Notes under the pieces: model-generated | Databases searched by the model: none | What the model saw: the letters and a program-made list of their open reading frames with translations, nothing else | What the model was told of the DNA's origin: nothing | Part shown: positions 496-7,097 of the stretch, piece after piece | Layout: every line of letters starts with the position of its first letter | How positions within the stretch are numbered: the stretch's first letter is position 1 | Program-made: the position numbers and the translations under genes | Source of the DNA: a virus | Taxonomy: Duplodnaviria > Heunggongvirae > Uroviricota > Caudoviricetes | Direction: 5' to 3' (one strand) | Virus record (IMG/VR): IMGVR_UViG_2671180846_000033 | Length of the DNA: 7,097 nt

Positions 496-1269
496 ATGAC
501 TAAACATATGGACATTCATTGTCAAACACGCATATTTAACTCAATTAACCATGACACCAAATATAAAATATGTATTTTTACTCCAAAAAACATTAAAAAA
601 AATAATGCAACTCTTTATATACTTGATGGGAATAGTGCCAACAATTACATTTCTGATATTCTGCCTGTTATTGATGCACTACCCAATCCACCAGTGTTAG
701 TTACACTTGGTTATGAATCTTGGAATAACCTTAGCATTCATCGCCGTGCTTACGATTATACTCCTGATGGTGAAAATGCTATTGTTGATAACTCTAAACC
801 AGCATGGATCTACTTTACTGGTGGAGGAAGCCAGTCTTTCCGAGAATTATTACTAACTCAGATCATGCCATGGGTTAGTACTATTGCTCCGAACAGTTCC
901 AGAATCGGTATATGGGGGCACTCGCTAGGTGCTATTTTTGTGCTTGATTGCTTAAAAAATAATTCATGCTTTAACTATTATTATATATCTGCACCATCAC
1001 TTCTATGGCAGAATGAAAGAATCATCAAGATAATTAAAGATGATATATCAGAATCAAAGCACACTAAAAGTATATGCTTGCTTAACGGAAATCTTAGCCT
1101 TGATTACTCCGCATCTTTATATCCTGAAGCCATCAAAGCGGAATCTGTTTTGAGAAATATTTTGACAGAAAAATACAGTAATTTTTCTATTGTACAATTT
1201 CCAGAGCTCAATCATCAGGAGACTTTCTCTGCTGCACTCTGGAATAGCATTATTCATTTCAGCATATAA
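496..1269 (+). CDS. Alpha/beta-hydrolase, putative esterase of the IroE/Fes (siderophore esterase / esterase D) type; no recognisable N-terminal signal peptide
   Basis: 257-aa ORF with ATG at 496 preceded by GGGGAG (485-490). Contains a G-H-S-L-G nucleophile elbow (Ser codon 922-924), an LDG motif near the N-terminus, AYDYTP, and a C-terminal ELNHQ histidine. The N-terminus is hydrophilic. The gene sits in visibly AT-rich DNA. Family call is from motif pattern only. Confidence 0.75.
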   Translation: MTKHMDIHCQTRIFNSINHDTKYKICIFTPKNIKKNNATLYILDGNSANNYISDILPVIDALPNPPVLVTLGYESWNNLSIHRRAYDYTPDGENAIVDNSKPAWIYFTGGGSQSFRELLLTQIMPWVSTIAPNSSRIGIWGHSLGAIFVLDCLKNNSCFNYYYISAPSLLWQNERIIKIIKDDISESKHTKSICLLNGNLSLDYSASLYPEAIKAESVLRNILTEKYSNFSIVQFPELNHQETFSAALWNSIIHFSI

Positions 1270-3399: not shown

Positions 3400-3449
3400 N
3401 NNNNNNNNNNNNNNNNNNNNNNNNNNNNNNNNNNNNNNNNNNNNNNNNN
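3400..3449. other. Run of 50 N at the O-like/P-like gene junction
   Basis: Directly visible in the sequence. Confidence 1.
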
Positions 3450-4254: not shown

Positions 4255-4692
4255 TCAATGCACCACAACAGACTCGCCGGATGACCCGCCGTCGCTGAAA
4301 TACGCTTTCCGGTAAACTGCCTGGACTGCATCATCATGCGCATCAATTGCCGTGCTCAACGCTTCCTGGGCCGCCAGTAATGCACGGCGCTCAACAGTGT
4401 CAAAAATACTGAGGTGATAACGCAGTTCACGCGGAAGAACAGTCAGGATAGCTGGAATTAGTGCCTGAATTTTTTCAACAGCATCAGGCGTATCCTTTTC
4501 AAGCCAGCGAAAAATATTTTGTATGTTCAATCCAATACCCTCTGTCGTAGAGGTGTCATGCATTGGTGGATAAGTCATTTCAAGCTCAAAATATGCTGTC
4601 GCTATATCATCAGCGATTTTTTTGCGCCCTACCCTCGGATAAAGCAGCCACGCATTCATCGCCATGCGGATGTGCTCATGCTTGATTTTCAT
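4255..4692 (-). CDS. ydaT: YdaT-like protein (CII functional analogue of YdaS/YdaT-type prophages)
   Basis: 145-aa ORF starting MKIKHEHI with a C-terminal segment LIPAILTVLPRELRYHLSIFDTVERRALLAAQEALSTAIDAHDDAVQAVYRKAYF that I recognise as YdaT-family. Its ATG (4692-4690) overlaps the upstream gene's TGA in an ATGA junction. Confidence 0.75.
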   Translation of the reverse strand: MKIKHEHIRMAMNAWLLYPRVGRKKIADDIATAYFELEMTYPPMHDTSTTEGIGLNIQNIFRWLEKDTPDAVEKIQALIPAILTVLPRELRYHLSIFDTVERRALLAAQEALSTAIDAHDDAVQAVYRKAYFSDGGSSGESVVVH

Positions 4693-4949
4693 GAATCAAC
4701 TCCCGCCGCTGCTTGTGCGTTAGCCTGATACTCAACAGGTAAACCATCGGTTGGATTAGGGTATTTATCAGGGCGCAATTCATGCGGAGTTACTCCCCAG
4801 TCAAGCGCCTCACATGCTGGTATAACCTCCTCCGCTGGCACTCGTTTTTTAAACCACCCACTTATGGTTTGCGGTGTTTTACCAAGACGACGCCCTAATT
4901 CTGATTGGCTCATTATTGACAGGATTTTCACTTGAGTACTTTTTTGCAT
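4689..4949 (-). CDS. ydaS: Cro-like HTH regulator, YdaS-like
   Basis: 86-aa ORF with ATG at 4949 preceded by GGAGGG. HTH segment SQSELGRRLGKTPQTISGW; divergent from the repressor gene. Confidence 0.7.
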   Translation of the reverse strand: MQKSTQVKILSIMSQSELGRRLGKTPQTISGWFKKRVPAEEVIPACEALDWGVTPHELRPDKYPNPTDGLPVEYQANAQAAAGVDS

Positions 4950-5075
4950 GTTTCCCTCCGAACTTTACGATGACACCGATAATTACAAATTTAAATTTAA
5001 ATTTCAACTTCTATTTGTAATGCCACTTATCAATTTTTTCTGTAGGATCGCGGAACTAGTTTACGAGGGGTGGTG
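4950..5075. promoter_or_regulatory. Divergent control region between the Cro-like and CI-like genes (OR-like)
   Basis: ATTACAAAT (4982-4990) and its reverse complement ATTTGTAAT (5013-5021) flank a palindromic (AAATTT)x3 tract (4987-5004). The 14-bp motif AATTACAAATTTAA (4981-4994) recurs at 6223-6236. Ribosome-binding sites for both flanking genes are present. Confidence 0.6.
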
Positions 5076-5468
5076 ATGATCTTTGTAAAACGCCTTCAGC
5101 AGGTGTTGCAGGAATTGAATATAAACCAGTCAGAGCTGGGAAGACGTCTTGGTGTAAAACCCCAATCCGTGCAAGGTTGGTTGAAAGGCGTGATGCCAAG
5201 AATGGATAAACTGGAAAAATTAGCAGAGCTCTCACAACATCCCGTCCATTGGTTCTTTATGGAAGAAGAAACTCTCGGCGATAAAATGGCTGTATCCAGT
5301 AATGACAACCAACCGCAACTTACAGAACAACAACGAAAAATCATATCGCTTTTAGATGAGTTACCTCAAAGCGACGCAGAGCAGATCATTCGTGATATGG
5401 AGCAAAAACGCGATTTCTATAAACGGAAACTTGAAGAGTTACTGCGGCAGAAAAACAAAACTGCCTGA
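5076..5468 (+). CDS. CI-like phage repressor, XRE-family HTH with coiled-coil-like C-terminus and no S24 peptidase domain
   Basis: The track ORF starts at GTG 5070; ATG at 5076 is preceded by GAGGGG (5065-5070). HTH segment NQSELGRRLGVKPQSVQGW; C-terminal 50 aa are charged and heptad-like. About 130 aa, too short for a LexA-type cleavage domain. Confidence 0.8.
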   Translation: MIFVKRLQQVLQELNINQSELGRRLGVKPQSVQGWLKGVMPRMDKLEKLAELSQHPVHWFFMEEETLGDKMAVSSNDNQPQLTEQQRKIISLLDELPQSDAEQIIRDMEQKRDFYKRKLEELLRQKNKTA

Positions 5469-5499
5469 TGCATTCCTTTTCTGGAACGAGCATCAGGCA
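5462..5499. terminator. Hairpin between the convergent repressor and higA genes (candidate bidirectional terminator)
   Basis: TGCCTGATGC (5462-5471) pairs with GCATCAGGCA (5490-5499), with inner TTCC/GGAA pairing. A T-rich tract follows on the minus strand (reverse complement of 5441-5461). Confidence 0.5.
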
Positions 5500-5514
5500 A
5501 ATGACTAGCAGATT

Positions 5515-5874
5515 TTATAATCCAACCAGGCTTTCCAGGGGGATACCAAATTGATTATGAAGACGGCGAATCATTGGTAACGTAAGGCTTCTGGTACCAT
5601 TCAACACCTCATAAACCCGATTTTTTTTCCCAATTGCGGGTTCCAAATCTTTCACAGTCAGCCCCTGCTGTTCCATGCGAAATCTTATAGCTTCAATTGG
5701 GGATGGTGGCTCAATGGGATAATGTTTTTTTTCATATTCCTCTATTAGCAAACACATCACCTCAAAAAAATCCCCCTCAGGCGTGTCAATTTCGGGCTCA
5801 TTGTCGAACATGGGTTCAACAGCACGCAACGCGGCTTCATAATCTTGCTCTGTACGAATAGGTTTGATGTTCAT
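5515..5874 (-). CDS. higA: HigA-type antitoxin (XRE HTH, type II TA)
   Basis: 119-aa ORF with C-terminal HTH LTVKDLEPAIGKKNRVYEVLNGTRSLTLPMIRRL. Starts 2 nt after the toxin stop, with GGAG upstream. Confidence 0.8.
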   Translation of the reverse strand: MNIKPIRTEQDYEAALRAVEPMFDNEPEIDTPEGDFFEVMCLLIEEYEKKHYPIEPPSPIEAIRFRMEQQGLTVKDLEPAIGKKNRVYEVLNGTRSLTLPMIRRLHNQFGIPLESLVGL

Positions 5875-5876
5875 GC

Positions 5877-6179
5877 TTACTCCAGTTCGATGGTATCAGC
5901 ATCAATAGCATCGTATTCCTTGTGGTTTCCGATGAATTTAACAAATACCCATCCTCGCTGATACGCAATTGCAACAATTAAACGGTAATGATTACCTTTT
6001 ATGTTGAATACCACGCGCCGGTTTTTCAATATACTGGCCGTTCGGTATTGTGCCTTAATGTCTGCTGGGCTTTTCCAGTCAGCTTTTGCCGCCTCATCCA
6101 CCCATGCCCTTAGCGGTTGTTCTGCATCAGGATTCTCCGCCCAAAAATCCCTGAGTGTTTTAACTGAGATAATCTTCAT
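5877..6179 (-). CDS. higB: HigB-type toxin (RelE/ParE superfamily)
   Basis: HigB-like pattern in the translation, including GNHYRLIV and KFIGNHKEYDAID. The track start (6224) is a TTG; the ATG at 6179 gives about 100 aa. Toxin precedes antitoxin, as in HigBA modules. Confidence 0.8.
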   Translation of the reverse strand: MKIISVKTLRDFWAENPDAEQPLRAWVDEAAKADWKSPADIKAQYRTASILKNRRVVFNIKGNHYRLIVAIAYQRGWVFVKFIGNHKEYDAIDADTIELE

Positions 6180-6190
6180 AACTGTATAGT

Positions 6191-6207
6191 AGTCCCATTT
6201 TGGGACT
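6191..6207. promoter_or_regulatory. Perfect 17-bp palindrome AGTCCCATTTTGGGACT just upstream of higB (candidate HigA/HigBA operator)
   Basis: Read directly from the sequence; lies 12-28 nt upstream of the higB ATG on the minus strand. Confidence 0.5.
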
Positions 6208-6222
6208 GATGCAACAGCCCGC

Positions 6223-6276
6223 AATTACAAATTTAATAATAAACATGTTGACCAGTTAAATTTTAATTTGTAAATT
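6223..6276 (+). promoter_or_regulatory. pL-like promoter/operator region for the rightward early operon (OL-like)
   Basis: Second copy of AATTACAAATTTAA (6223-6236); TTGACC (6248-6253), 17-bp spacer, TAAATT (6271-6276); inverted ATTTGTAA (6266-6273) overlaps the -10. Confidence 0.5.
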
Positions 6277-6457
6277 GTATCCATAAACCCACCCCGCCCC
6301 ACAGAACGCAGGGCAATACTTCGAGTTACCCGGCAGTGGTCAGGGGTTAAGTAGCCAGCCTGAGGCGTATGAACATGACGGCGGGGATTACGTTTAACTA
6401 TGCAGCAGGTTTTTTGTTCCGCTACCCCGGCGTTAAGGGGAAACAGAGGATTTCTCA

Positions 6458-6814
6458 GTGGGCGAAGTCAAACATCAGAATGGAAGGCATCCAGGGATCA
6501 GCAAAGAAACAGCGATGGCGCTTTATATTGATATCAGCGCCATTGCCGGACAGGTAAGAATTATCAGAGCGGTAACTAAGCGGTATGCGCCTTTACTTCA
6601 GAAAGTCTCTGGTGAGTGCACCGAAGATATTGTCAACGATTTCGTCATCAAACTGCGAGGACTCATCTTCAGTTACAAGGTGACCACAATTTTTGCAGAT
6701 GGCTCCCGCGAAACTGTCAGAGCCCTGCGGCTTAAAGGATGTGTCAAAGACTTAGCCACCACATTCTGGGCAAGAAAACTTGATTGTATTCATAACCAAT
6801 TTCCTCTCGAGTAA
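6458..6814 (+). CDS. Hypothetical early-left operon protein
   Basis: 118-aa ORF from GTG 6458 (AGAGGA 7 nt upstream) or about 100 aa from ATG 6515. No family recognised. Confidence 0.5.
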   Translation: MGEVKHQNGRHPGISKETAMALYIDISAIAGQVRIIRAVTKRYAPLLQKVSGECTEDIVNDFVIKLRGLIFSYKVTTIFADGSRETVRALRLKGCVKDLATTFWARKLDCIHNQFPLE

Positions 6815-6885
6815 CAGACCCCTCAGAGGATACCACCTCGCCTGACGTGGTTAAAAGCAGGCAGCGCTAACCACAAGGAGCCGAC

Positions 6886-7097
6886 ATGCAGAAACGAGAA
6901 CCCGTCATCATCGCGCCAGACTATACCGATGATGAACTTTATGAGTGGATGCACCAGAAAATTAAGGCAGCGCAGGACCTGAAATGGGCCAATGAAGCCA
7001 GGGCTAAGCAGGCTGAAAATCTGTCCGCTCTGGAGCAGGATATCACCAATCTGGAAAAAGCAGCGGCATTAAGCATTGCCAGAATGATTACATACCC
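6886..7097 (+). CDS. Hypothetical early-left operon protein, 5' part (runs off the window end)
   Basis: ATG at 6886 preceded by AAGGAG (6876-6881). Open frame to the window end; translation begins MQKREPVIIAPDYTDDELYEW and continues with a coiled-coil-like segment. Not in the ORF track because no stop is reached. Confidence 0.55.
   Translation, partial: MQKREPVIIAPDYTDDELYEWMHQKIKAAQDLKWANEARAKQAENLSALEQDITNLEKAAALSIARMITY

Follow-up and report, generated by a model that had tools for sequence, protein, structure and literature searches.

A predicted HigBA-family toxin-antitoxin operon in the immunity cassette of a Qin/Rac-like lambdoid prophage of Escherichia coli

What is a pair of small genes doing between the repressor and the early-left promoter of a lambdoid prophage, and how might it be controlled there? 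The pair lies in a window of 7,097 nucleotides, the whole stretch of DNA analysed here (IMG/VR record IMGVR_UViG_2671180846_000033). The immunity cassette in this window has the order OL, higB, higA, repressor, OR, cro (Table 1) and belongs to a Qin/Rac-like lambdoid prophage of non-O157 EHEC-type E. coli. The locus reads as an intact, ordinary-looking type II toxin-antitoxin operon of the E. coli K-12 HigBA (PF09907) family, a functional assignment made from sequence. The pair was already partly annotated, as the toxin is named in RefSeq, and the find is well supported but unsurprising. No experiments on this higBA module were found in the literature searched. We regard it as probable that higBA is a HigBA operon fixed in the immunity cassette, with the regulation and role proposed below.

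Table 1. Features of the immunity cassette (positions in the window)
Feature	Position	Strand	Details
Cro analogue, YdaS family	4689..4949	-	PF15943 E=1.7e-8; phrog_35; marks the left part of the cassette
OR-like region	4979..5020		operators 4983-4994 and 5009-5020; back-to-back PRM-like (+) and PR-like (-) promoters
Prophage repressor, DicA-like	5076..5468	+	N-terminal HTH, without S24 peptidase domain; PGAP start 5076
Hairpin, candidate intrinsic terminator of higBA	5449..5499	-	arms 5462-5471 and 5490-5499; inner TTCC/GGAA stem
higA	5515..5874	-	N-terminal helical toxin-binding region and C-terminal Xre-type HTH
higB	5877..6179	-	PF09907 (K-12 YgjN-type) toxin, predicted ribosome-dependent mRNA endonuclease
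higA Shine-Dalgarno GGAG	5880..5883	-	5 nt upstream of the higA ATG, within the higB 3' end; read from the sequence
Predicted PhigB	6186..6214	-	-35 TTGCAT 6214..6209; 17-nt spacer with palindrome; -10 TACTAT 6191..6186
Putative HigA operator	6191..6207		palindrome AGTCCC-ATTTT-GGGACT; conserved core GTCCC-N5-GGGAC 6192-6206
OL-like operators and pL/PdicB-like promoter	6225..6276	+	divergent from PhigB; operators 6225-6236 and 6262-6273; promoter 6248-6276, -35 6248-6253, -10 6271-6276

The two genes and their products

In the ORF list of the window, higB (100 amino acids, ATG start) and higA (119 amino acids) are small adjacent genes on the same strand, with the toxin gene first and a gap of 2 nt between the higB stop and the higA start, which is the layout of a toxin-first bicistronic operon. 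The mechanical higB ORF reaches back to a TTG at 6224, the end coordinate used in the first-pass annotation. In E. coli O26:H11 11368, RefSeq/PGAP annotates both coding sequences with the same limits (10278-10580 and 9916-10275 of our locus L001). PGAP labels the toxin 'type II TA system HigB family toxin' (WP_000692026.1), and one recent RefSeq record (H60) names a 'HigA family antitoxin'. A search against NCBIfam matched neither protein and is uninformative, as PGAP names the toxin by some other rule.

The first-pass annotation had called the locus a HigB/HigA pair with the toxin first, and had suggested a HigB/RelE profile search of 5877-6179 as a check. Both genes match their profiles far beyond chance. 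HigB spans the whole of PF09907 (profile positions 1-74 of 74; 113.7 bits, cutoff 27; E=4.8e-33), its sole match at E<=0.01, and also matches phrog_5734 (E=1.3e-46), the K-12 HigB structures 5IFG/5YCL (E=3e-7) and, over its full length, the PADLOC profile PD-Lambda-2_A (E=1.1e-40). Columns invariant in the family were taken as the putative catalytic residues. In an alignment with six homologues, whose identity to the window HigB ranges over 28-97%, F58, N59, G62, N63, R66, H86, E88, Y89 and D90 are invariant. By homology, HigB would be a RelE-superfamily, ribosome-dependent mRNA endonuclease. In K-12, HigB cuts only translated mRNA, HigA autorepresses, and induction is Lon-dependent (PMC2814082; PMC11980606). 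Assignment to the Rts1/Proteus type of HigB was rejected because HigB has no match to PF05015 (HigB-like_toxin) at E<=0.01, in contrast to D6 orf70, which matches it at E=4e-35.

HigA carries an HTH_3 match at residues 63-115 (27.1 bits, cutoff 23) and aligns with K-12 HigA (5IFG_B) over residues 6-112 (E=3e-9) and with phrog_1373 (E=1.7e-41). It also matches PD-Lambda-2_B (E=1.7e-42), but over profile positions 1-119 of 402 only. As in its homologues, HigA would contact HigB through the N-terminal region and carry its Xre-type HTH at the C-terminus. The identity and molecular mechanism of the pair are thus very likely those of a HigBA system.

Both genes are intact in 148 E. coli genomes and are under strong purifying selection, with an overall dN/dS of 0.02-0.08 (0.02-0.08 for HigB, 0.02-0.04 for HigA). 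Compared with the copy on plasmid prophages, synonymous sites are saturated, yet 91-94% of the amino acids are identical.

Regulatory DNA of the operon

A consensus promoter scan missed PhigB and a terminator scan missed the hairpin at 5462-5499. Both were found by reading the sequence, followed by comparative alignment for the promoter and by folding for the hairpin. The match of PhigB to the consensus is weak, at about 7/12, and in 10 upstream variants the -35 keeps its TTG and the -10 its TAnnAT without exception. Another candidate promoter, TTAACT/TTAAAT, lies further upstream, overlaps OL1 and would start transcription at about 6224.

The palindrome AGTCCCATTTTGGGACT (6191-6207) is unique within the window. 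With up to 2 mismatches allowed, 0.18 such palindromes are expected by chance, which by itself is weak evidence; the palindrome becomes convincing because it is conserved across upstream variants. Across the 10 distinct, diverged variants, a single C-to-T change is the only difference in the arms; centre and flanks are variable. Upstream of the higB of a D6-like plasmid prophage (91% identical), these half-sites are present in two copies amid DNA that otherwise cannot be aligned. The palindromic operator of its own that had been claimed for the module therefore has a good candidate, placed in the spacer of the higB promoter and phylogenetically conserved, although as an operator it is putative.

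The -10 lies 6 nt from the higB ATG in all 10 variants, and none has a Shine-Dalgarno sequence. A leaderless higB mRNA is therefore predicted, with the PhigB start falling approximately on the first base of the ATG, position 6179.

At the other end of the operon lies the hairpin, our inverted repeat I16. Read on the minus strand, it folds with an MFE of -26.1 kcal/mol (z=-3.9) and is followed directly by GUUUUGUUUUUCU (5461..5449). On the plus strand the MFE is -23.5 kcal/mol (z=-4.7) and no U-run follows. The hairpin is a candidate terminator of higBA, and a candidate insulator that separates the convergent units.

From this anatomy and the phylogenetic footprints, we propose that a weak private sigma-70 promoter drives higBA, and the operon would be expected to be on in the lysogen, independent of PRM. 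With GTCCC-N5-GGGAC in the 17-nt spacer as its operator, HigA, or the HigBA complex, would repress its own synthesis. Transcription would begin at or beside the higB ATG, making translation of the toxin inefficient, while the GGAG ribosome-binding site of higA would maintain a surplus of antitoxin over HigB. The hairpin and U-run would stop the transcript ahead of the convergent repressor gene. If synthesis of the labile HigA ceased, through shut-off by an infecting phage or through loss of the cassette, free HigB would shut down translation.

The immunity cassette and the role of the module

The repressor has an HTH_3 domain (E=6.6e-9), scores 50 bits against the NCBIfam DicA model, under its cutoff of 101, and is 22% identical to K-12 DicA over its full length. 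It is convergent with higBA, at a distance of 46 nt. On the far side of the module, the consensus scan found the early-left promoter TTGACC-17-TAAATT, flanked by TTACAAATTTAA-type operators; the only other copies in the window are the two at OR. This OL/early-left promoter region is invariant or nearly so in the 10 upstream variants. Homology to the heteroimmune phage Evi sets in at about 6285, which marks the end of the immunity-specific DNA. A Cro/CII role has been described for YdaS/YdaT (PMC8630535).

The first-pass annotation had placed the module between the repressor and a pL-like promoter and had called it convergent with the repressor. Place and orientation agree with the gene map. 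An early-left promoter with OR-type operators is present as well, but is better named PdicB-like, because the prophage is Qin/Rac-like, with a DicA-like repressor, YdaS/YdaT, and ydfC and DicF-dicB downstream. Rfam, searched at the gathering threshold and at E<=1, returned nothing within 5400-6900, and the conserved early-left leader (6283-6460) is no more stable when folded than shuffled sequence is (z=+0.92).

The same annotation had described the slot as a hotspot for cargo, in line with published work. The interval between cI and N is a known mosaic and defence hotspot (Owen 2021, PMC8585504), and a lambdoid prophage carries at this very position a HigB-family TAC that protects against both lambda-vir and Bas25 (Mets 2024, bioRxiv 10.1101/2024.02.24.581848). 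The contents of the slot also vary among prophages: it is taken up in Stx phage BP-4795 by a HigB-HigA-SecB-like module, in CP-933P by paaA2-parE2 and in phage Evi by a small ORF, and is empty of cargo in K-12 Qin (166 bp).

Whether the module was inserted into this slot, as also claimed, is a different matter. Among 5426 E. coli genomes, 148 contain the repressor DNA and 148 the module DNA. The two are adjacent at every locus inspected, and higBA accompanies the repressor in 23 of 23 viral contigs in IMG/VR. The module is common in the non-O157 EHEC lineages O26, O103, O111 and O45. An empty site, with the same repressor and no higBA, was absent from the 5426 genomes and from IMG/VR. The GC content of the module (0.41-0.44) equals that of the repressor region, with no break in composition and no signal of foreign DNA. 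With no example of the repressor lacking the module, insertion can be inferred only from other prophages; comparison with the heteroimmune Evi and with K-12 Qin backs it. In O26:H11 11368 the integrase of the host prophage is frameshifted, and the prophage therefore persists as a cryptic element.

As to what the module is selected for, we tentatively favor abortive-infection-type exclusion of other phages, with confidence a little short of even. Post-segregational stabilization of the prophage or of the immunity cassette would be an inseparable side effect. Relatives with proven defence carry sensor parts (chaperone and ChAD, or peptidase and C) that are missing from the window module, so no trigger can be proposed from the sequence.

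Addiction alone would be the simplest competitor: post-segregational killing would selfishly stabilize the prophage, and specifically its immunity cassette, with no selected anti-phage role. The nearest non-identical relatives (about 90% amino acid identity) are carried by D6/P1-like plasmid prophages of 86-97 kb that are non-mobilizable, the obvious role there being plasmid maintenance, and paaR2-paaA2-parE2 from the CP-933P immunity region stabilizes mini-F. The linkage of module and repressor in every genome and contig examined, and the persistence of the cryptic O26:H11 11368 prophage, point the same way. However, OL, OR and whatever lies between them recombine together, which is a simple explanation of the linkage, and the slot is enriched in exclusion systems, including the HigB-family TAC with its demonstrated defence phenotype. 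Addiction and abortive infection are not mutually exclusive, and we consider addiction alone rather unlikely.

A second possibility concerns polarity or mechanism. The HigB-like protein could be the protective partner, or the target could be another one, such as RNase III. Not all PF09907 relatives are canonical, as PD-lambda-2 and SehA illustrate, and this counts against our best explanation. Salmonella SehA alone is reported to have no RNase activity and to act via RNase III (bioRxiv 10.1101/2024.07.09.602740). For both window proteins, the PADLOC PD-Lambda-2_A and PD-Lambda-2_B profiles outscore Pfam and K-12 HigBA, and the B protein of PD-lambda-2 is toxic alone and rescued by A. That toxicity is tied, though, to a 402-residue fusion of HTH and peptidase, whereas HigA ends at residue 119 with no peptidase domain and the third gene is absent. 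The motif conserved with K-12 HigB (N59, G62, N63, R66, H86, E88, Y89, D90) is intact, and a non-canonical pair seems very unlikely.

Third, higBA could be wired into the lysis-lysogeny circuit. Derepressed PhigB might run into the repressor gene, acting by antisense or transcriptional interference, or repressor on OL1, a site whose centre is about 51 bp ahead of the predicted start of higB, might modulate PhigB. By either route, stress-driven turnover of HigA would feed into the induction of a prophage whose repressor has no SOS-cleavable domain. The close convergence of the two units, the lack of a U-run on the plus strand of the hairpin, the 10 nt between OL1 (6225-6236) and the PhigB -35, the missing S24 domain, and the paaR2 locus as a precedent for a TA pair embedded in immunity regulation would all suit such a switch. 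Against it stand the strong hairpin and U-run on the higBA strand directly ahead of the repressor gene, and the putative operator of HigA, which makes input from the phage repressor unnecessary. The higBA coding block also works in a wholly different context on D6-like plasmids, and we judge a switch component highly improbable.

Finally, a decaying, inactive pair that hitch-hikes with the immunity region is barely credible: the weak promoter consensus and the 1-nt deletion in the A8 run of higA in one IMG/VR contig (L020) would fit it, but both ORFs are full length against their profiles, their dN/dS is low, regulatory motifs are conserved amid variable flanks, and a lone frameshift in a homopolymer is most simply a sequencing error.

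A further reading, to which we give little credence, makes the module more than cargo: a co-evolved part of this immunity type that never parts from its repressor. PhigB, predicted to be leaderless, abuts OL1 and fires toward the repressor gene, so TA expression and repressor level could influence each other. In that case the prophage, with its non-SOS-cleavable DicA-like repressor, would gain a stress-sensing route (Lon, HigA turnover) to induction or exclusion. The immunity cassette itself would then be addictive, resisting replacement by heteroimmune recombination.

Current understanding is unchanged by this locus, whose toxin annotation pre-exists in RefSeq. It adds a clean, well-delimited case to the growing view of the interval downstream of temperate-phage repressors as a store of TA-type systems for exclusion and addiction. 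The predicted combination of a leaderless toxin gene and a well-translated antitoxin gene is a simple, testable design for antitoxin excess. In the clinically important non-O157 EHEC lineages that carry it, the module could affect prophage stability and phage susceptibility, with a bearing on phage-based control and Stx-phage ecology.

Comparison with known systems

Several systems share the location of higBA. Lambda rexAB and BTP1 bstA, which lysogens express, fill the same hotspot from repressor to early-left promoter (PMC8585504), but they are transcribed with cI and have no sequence or mechanistic kinship to higBA. The paaR2-paaA2-parE2 locus of CP-933P/Sp12 (E. coli O157:H7) is also a type II TA system in the immunity region of a YdaS/YdaT-type EHEC prophage, and its paaA2-parE2, like higBA, lies downstream of a non-cleavable repressor. 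There, the toxin is of the ParE family, the antitoxin has no DNA-binding domain, and the prophage repressor both shares a transcript with the pair and regulates it, unlike the situation of the autonomous, convergent higBA. A TA type wired to the repressor was rejected for the window pair, as higBA is on the strand opposite the repressor and HigA has its own HTH and a putative operator.

PD-lambda-2 (Vassallo et al. 2022) provides the best-scoring profiles for both window proteins. This E. coli mobile-element system defends against lambda-vir; its B protein is an HTH-ImmA/IrrE peptidase fusion of about 400 amino acids that is itself toxic and is rescued by A, and C, a third gene that is akin to a P4 antitoxin, is needed for defence (PMC9519451). 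HigA stops short of the ImmA/IrrE domain and has no peptidase Pfam match, and the next gene downstream of higA is the convergent repressor. Membership in PD-lambda-2 was rejected despite the strong PADLOC matches, since the peptidase domain and the third gene are missing.

The closest copies are those of D6/P1-like plasmid prophages (e.g. p95_MLI121), with HigB 91% and HigA 94% identical and the same gene order. They share the operator half-sites and the TACTAT -10 with the window. Nucleotide homology is restricted to the two coding sequences (5522-6182, 81%), and in the plasmid copy, located among tail genes, there are two palindromes, and the leader is a normal one that includes a Shine-Dalgarno sequence. 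In phage D6 itself, higB has been swapped for a PF05015 HigB-like pair, and an orphan higA is kept.

K-12 HigBA (YgjN/YgjM; PDB 5IFG, 5YCL, 6KML) belongs to the same Pfam toxin family, also with the toxin first. In both systems HigA has a toxin-binding region at the N-terminus and an HTH at the C-terminus, a palindrome lies in the promoter (PMC2814082), which is a predicted one here, and HigB has the FN..GN..R...H.EYD motif. K-12 HigB is only about 28% identical to the window HigB, and K-12 HigA has 138 amino acids compared with 119 here. K-12 HigBA is found in the core chromosome, whereas the window pair lies in a prophage immunity cassette, with a leaderless higB predicted.

HigBAC of E. coli NT1F31, to which ORF22-21-20 of Stx phages BP-4795 and H-19B is equivalent, occupies exactly the same slot, from the repressor to the early-left operon, and has a published anti-phage function. 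Its PF09907 HigB is 42% identical to the window HigB, and the N-terminal region and HTH of its HigA are homologous, also at 42% identity. BP-4795, H-19B and many Stx1a phages carry this HigB, an extended HigA and a SecB-like gene between cI and N. HigA aligns only to the first ~120 residues of BP-4795 ORF21, without the ~100-amino-acid ChAD extension, and no gene here matches the profile of the SecB-like chaperone (PD-T4-9_C), which the chaperone of that module matches at E=3e-11. TAC/HigBAC membership was rejected on these two grounds despite the PADLOC matches. The PF09907 HigB family has come to lie in this slot at least twice, in different architectures: a two-gene, autonomous pair with a private promoter, convergent with the repressor, in the window, and a three-gene, chaperone-dependent module, co-directional and co-transcribed with cI, in HigBAC.

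A HigB/HigA pair in the immunity region

ORF calling in the window finds two neighbouring ORFs on the minus strand at 5515-6224. RefSeq/PGAP annotates CDSs at identical positions in E. coli O26:H11 11368, naming higB a 'type II toxin-antitoxin system HigB family toxin', and one recent RefSeq record calls the higA product a HigA family antitoxin. The first-pass annotation had proposed a toxin-first HigB/RelE pair here, and the profile match on which that reading hinged is clear: HigB spans the complete Pfam profile PF09907 (HigB_toxin) at 113.7 bits (cutoff 27; E=4.8e-33). Started at the ATG (table), the protein aligns with K-12 HigB from residue 1, and it matches the solved K-12 chains 5IFG, 5YCL and 6KML at E=3e-7. 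The gene order is also as proposed. A Pfam profile search gave the 100-aa protein no match to PF05015, the Rts1/Proteus HigB family, and 'HigB' is therefore used here in the K-12/YgjN sense.

Nine residues are invariant among the homologues (F58, N59, G62, N63, R66, H86, E88, Y89 and D90), and the window HigB has all nine. Besides K-12 HigB, these homologues (28-97% identical) are proteins of E. coli prophages, of a plasmid prophage, of Stx phage BP-4795 and of a Bacteroides phage. HigA carries an Xre-type HTH at residues 63-115 (Pfam search), and K-12 HigA matches it at E=3e-9 across residues 6-112. PF09907 toxins are ribosome-dependent mRNases encoded toxin-first, and K-12 HigA represses itself via promoter palindromes, with Lon needed for induction (PMC2814082; PMC11980606). 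Homology identifies HigB as a predicted mRNase and HigA as its predicted antitoxin-repressor. Both genes are under strong purifying selection (dN/dS = 0.02-0.08); between the window pair and the plasmid-prophage copy synonymous sites are saturated, and the proteins are still 91-94% identical.

Two A8 homopolymers lie in higA, at 5621-5628 and 5725-5732 (T8 on the plus strand). In one IMG/VR contig (L020, 3300-3670) the second is shortened to A7; this puts the antitoxin out of frame and leaves higB intact. Sequencing error is the likeliest cause. A genuine slip would be toxic.

Features of the module and its control region
Feature	Position	Strand	Detail
Repressor	5076-5468	+	HTH, without S24 peptidase domain; 22% identity to DicA, full length
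higA	5515-5874	-	119 aa; starts 2 nt past the higB stop
higA Shine-Dalgarno			GGAG, 5 nt upstream of the higA ATG
higB	5877-6179	-	100 aa; ATG at 6179; mechanical ORF 5877-6224 starts at TTG
Predicted higB operator	6191-6207		AGTCCC-ATTTT-GGGACT, directly upstream of higB; unique in the window
Operator TTACAAATTTAA at OR	4983-4994 and 5009-5020
Operator TTACAAATTTAA at OL	6225-6236 and 6262-6273		Either side of the TTGACC-17-TAAATT promoter

The prophage and the linkage of module to repressor

The window comes from E. coli: prophages in O26, O103, O111 and O45 strains match it at 99.9% identity, and the host prophage is of lambdoid layout and Qin/Rac type. The early-left operon of the near-identical prophage in O26:H11 11368 runs on to ydfC, inside which the window stops, then to the DicF sRNA, dicB and an exonuclease. 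The 12-bp operator has four copies in the window. Because its OL copies flank the promoter, the toxin-antitoxin pair is placed between the repressor gene and the pL-like (PdicB-like) control region and converges on the repressor, in agreement with the first-pass annotation. Divergent from the repressor are genes for YdaS- and YdaT-family proteins (Pfam).

The Pfam names 'YdaT_toxin' (4255-4692, minus strand) and 'YdaS_toxin' (4689-4949, minus strand) could point to a second toxin-antitoxin pair, which we reject, as experiments make these proteins CII and Cro analogues, respectively, of the immunity switch and not toxins (PMC8630535). The O26:H11 11368 prophage does carry a second pair outside the window, of the ParD/ParE family, by the RusA/DUF968 genes toward the late region (L001 1792-2354). 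Its DicF sRNA scores 75 bits (L001 11848-11899), and its integrase is frameshifted.

Of 5426 complete E. coli genomes, 148 contain module DNA and exactly 148 contain repressor DNA, each at 149 places; the two are adjacent and convergent in all loci inspected. In 23 of 23 IMG/VR contigs whose HigB is at least 97% identical, higA is followed at an unchanged distance by the repressor, itself 92-100% identical; Cro falls to 82% and YdaT to 30%. Heteroimmune or mosaic relatives lose homology near 4450 and at 6286 or 6443. Because module and repressor co-occur and these breaks flank them, the unit of inheritance is the immunity cassette, OL-higB-higA-repressor-OR-cro. Synonymous divergence is 0.12-0.25 in higA and higB vs 0.05-0.08 in the adjacent repressor for the same prophage pairs (window 5076-6179 vs related prophages L003 and L004), which hints at recombination within the cassette or separate histories of its parts.

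That the module was inserted, as had been claimed, draws support from other prophages. K-12 Qin has ydfA 166 bp after dicA, and phage Evi has a single small ORF in the slot. Conversely, a repressor without the module was found in none of the 5426 genomes or 23 contigs, and base composition gives no signal of insertion at the module. Support for insertion comes solely from this comparison with other prophages.

Heteroimmune prophages (Evi, A34, CFSAN029787) share the early-left leader (6286-6443) at about 90-97% conservation, in contrast to the immunity-specific operators just upstream; the leader has no Rfam match and folds no better than shuffled sequence (z=+0.92). Opposite-strand annotations conflict beyond it: 6458-6814 on the plus strand (phrog_21318, E=1.5e-66; annotated on that strand in Evi) and a PGAP 66-aa 'ECs_2282 family putative zinc-binding protein' at about 6593-6793 on the minus strand. 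At the far end, 464 E. coli genomes cover at least 80% of positions 1-2340, frequently interrupted by IS3/IS1203, and in O26:H11 11368 the counterpart lies in another prophage than that of higBA. Beside a DUF977 gene there, a 257-aa alpha/beta-hydrolase-like ORF (496-1269, plus strand; phrog_8493 E=7e-185, Pfam Esterase weakly matched) sits in an AT-rich stretch (about 300-1650; GC 0.29-0.39 vs about 0.5 in the flanks) and looks like a putative moron. Two masked stretches, each exactly 50 N long, split the DUF1627 gene (2344-2393) and the replication O/P-like genes (3400-3449), and ORF calls spanning them are artefactual.

Operator, promoter and terminator of the module

The first-pass annotation had also given the module its own palindromic operator, a prediction that comparison supports. 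A 7+7 palindrome by itself is only a mild surprise in a short region; comparison supplies the deciding evidence. Across ten distinct upstream variants, drawn from E. coli genomes and IMG/VR contigs, the interval from OL1 (6225-6236) to higB varies strongly; what stays is the TTG of a predicted -35, the GTCCC/GGGA(C) arms, a TAnnAT hexamer and the ATG. Six forms of the hexamer occur (TACTAT, TATCAT, TAATAT, TAACAT, TAGCAT and TACCAT), all with the key -10 positions A2 and T6, and the palindrome fills the 17-nt promoter spacer. This predicted promoter matches consensus at only about 7/12, and a consensus promoter scan did not report it.

Because the -10 lies 6 nt from the ATG in every variant and none has a usable Shine-Dalgarno, the higB mRNA is predicted to be leaderless, starting at the A of the ATG. 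Set against the GGAG of higA, this would favour antitoxin excess. The convergent genes stop at 5468 and 5515, with a hairpin between them at 5462-5499 (minus strand, -26.1 kcal/mol MFE, z=-3.9). On the higBA strand GUUUUGUUUUUCU comes next, whereas the plus strand folds equally well without a U-run, so a terminator for higBA that also insulates the repressor gene is plausible.

Role of the module and comparison with known systems

From this anatomy, the higBA operon would be autonomous and autorepressed, with weak toxin translation. In the lysogen its expression would not depend on PRM, and its transcript would end before the repressor gene. Should HigA synthesis stop, HigB would arrest translation. 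Phage exclusion via abortive infection is our leading candidate for the selected role, at somewhat under even odds. The main rival, addiction of the prophage or immunity cassette, fits the relatives of the module on plasmid prophages and the defective integrase of the O26 host prophage; as the selected role it is rather unlikely, and it is probably a concurrent effect too. Non-canonical behaviour like that of PD-lambda-2 or the Salmonella relative SehA is a minor alternative. Regulatory coupling of the module to the immunity switch is likewise minor.

The best-scoring profiles for the pair are PADLOC PD-Lambda-2_A (E=1.1e-40) and PD-Lambda-2_B (E=1.7e-42). PD-lambda-2 has three genes; its B protein, itself toxic, has a peptidase domain, and C is needed for defence (PMC9519451). 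We reject membership, as HigA matches only profile positions 1-119 of 402 and the third gene is absent.

The cI-N interval of lambdoid phages is a mosaic-diversity hotspot, with rexAB in lambda and bstA in BTP1 (PMC8585504), and the claim that the slot attracts cargo agrees with further cases. CP-933P has paaA2-parE2 there, under repressor control. BP-4795, H-19B, ST2-8624 and many Stx1a phages have, by tblastn of phage genomes, a 42%-identical PF09907 HigB in the cI-N interval. In these Stx phages the HigA homologue has a ~100-aa C-terminal extension after the toxin gene, and the next gene matches the SecB-like chaperone profile PD-T4-9_C (E=3e-11). The set (BP-4795 ORF22-ORF20, L006 3501-4842) looks like a HigBAC toxin-antitoxin-chaperone module. 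A HigB-family system of this kind, in the same slot of a lambdoid prophage, is reported to protect against lambda-vir and Bas25 (bioRxiv 10.1101/2024.02.24.581848). Many GenBank phage records leave the region unannotated or merely 'hypothetical protein'.

A D6-like plasmid prophage carries a 91%-identical higB, with nucleotide homology confined to the two coding sequences (window 5522-6182). In its unrelated upstream DNA the half-sites nevertheless recur, as two palindromes (TCCCA-gca-TGGGA and GTCCCA-tat-TGGAAC). This recurrence independently supports GTCCC/GGGAC as a putative HigA recognition element. TACTAT is present as in the window, but an ordinary leader with a Shine-Dalgarno follows. 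In phage D6 itself (orf70-72, L039 4218-5345, vs L007 4001-4666), the PF09907 higB and promoter are swapped for a PF05015 HigB-like toxin and another HTH antitoxin, and an orphan higA, its product 93% identical to the window HigA, is kept downstream. It looks as if one toxin-antitoxin pair displaced another and the old antitoxin was retained.

Our literature search found no paper on this specific module. Already described are its family, gene order, operator type and hotspot, as well as HigB-family toxins in the exact slot, and RefSeq names the gene. Four traits set it apart: an architecture of two genes, convergent with the repressor and with a predicted promoter of their own; linkage without exception to a single DicA-like immunity type; a toxin predicted to be leaderless; and a coding block common to the module and D6-like plasmid prophages. 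Judged by its genes, the module is kin to two defence-proven systems and a member of neither, in a plain two-gene form.
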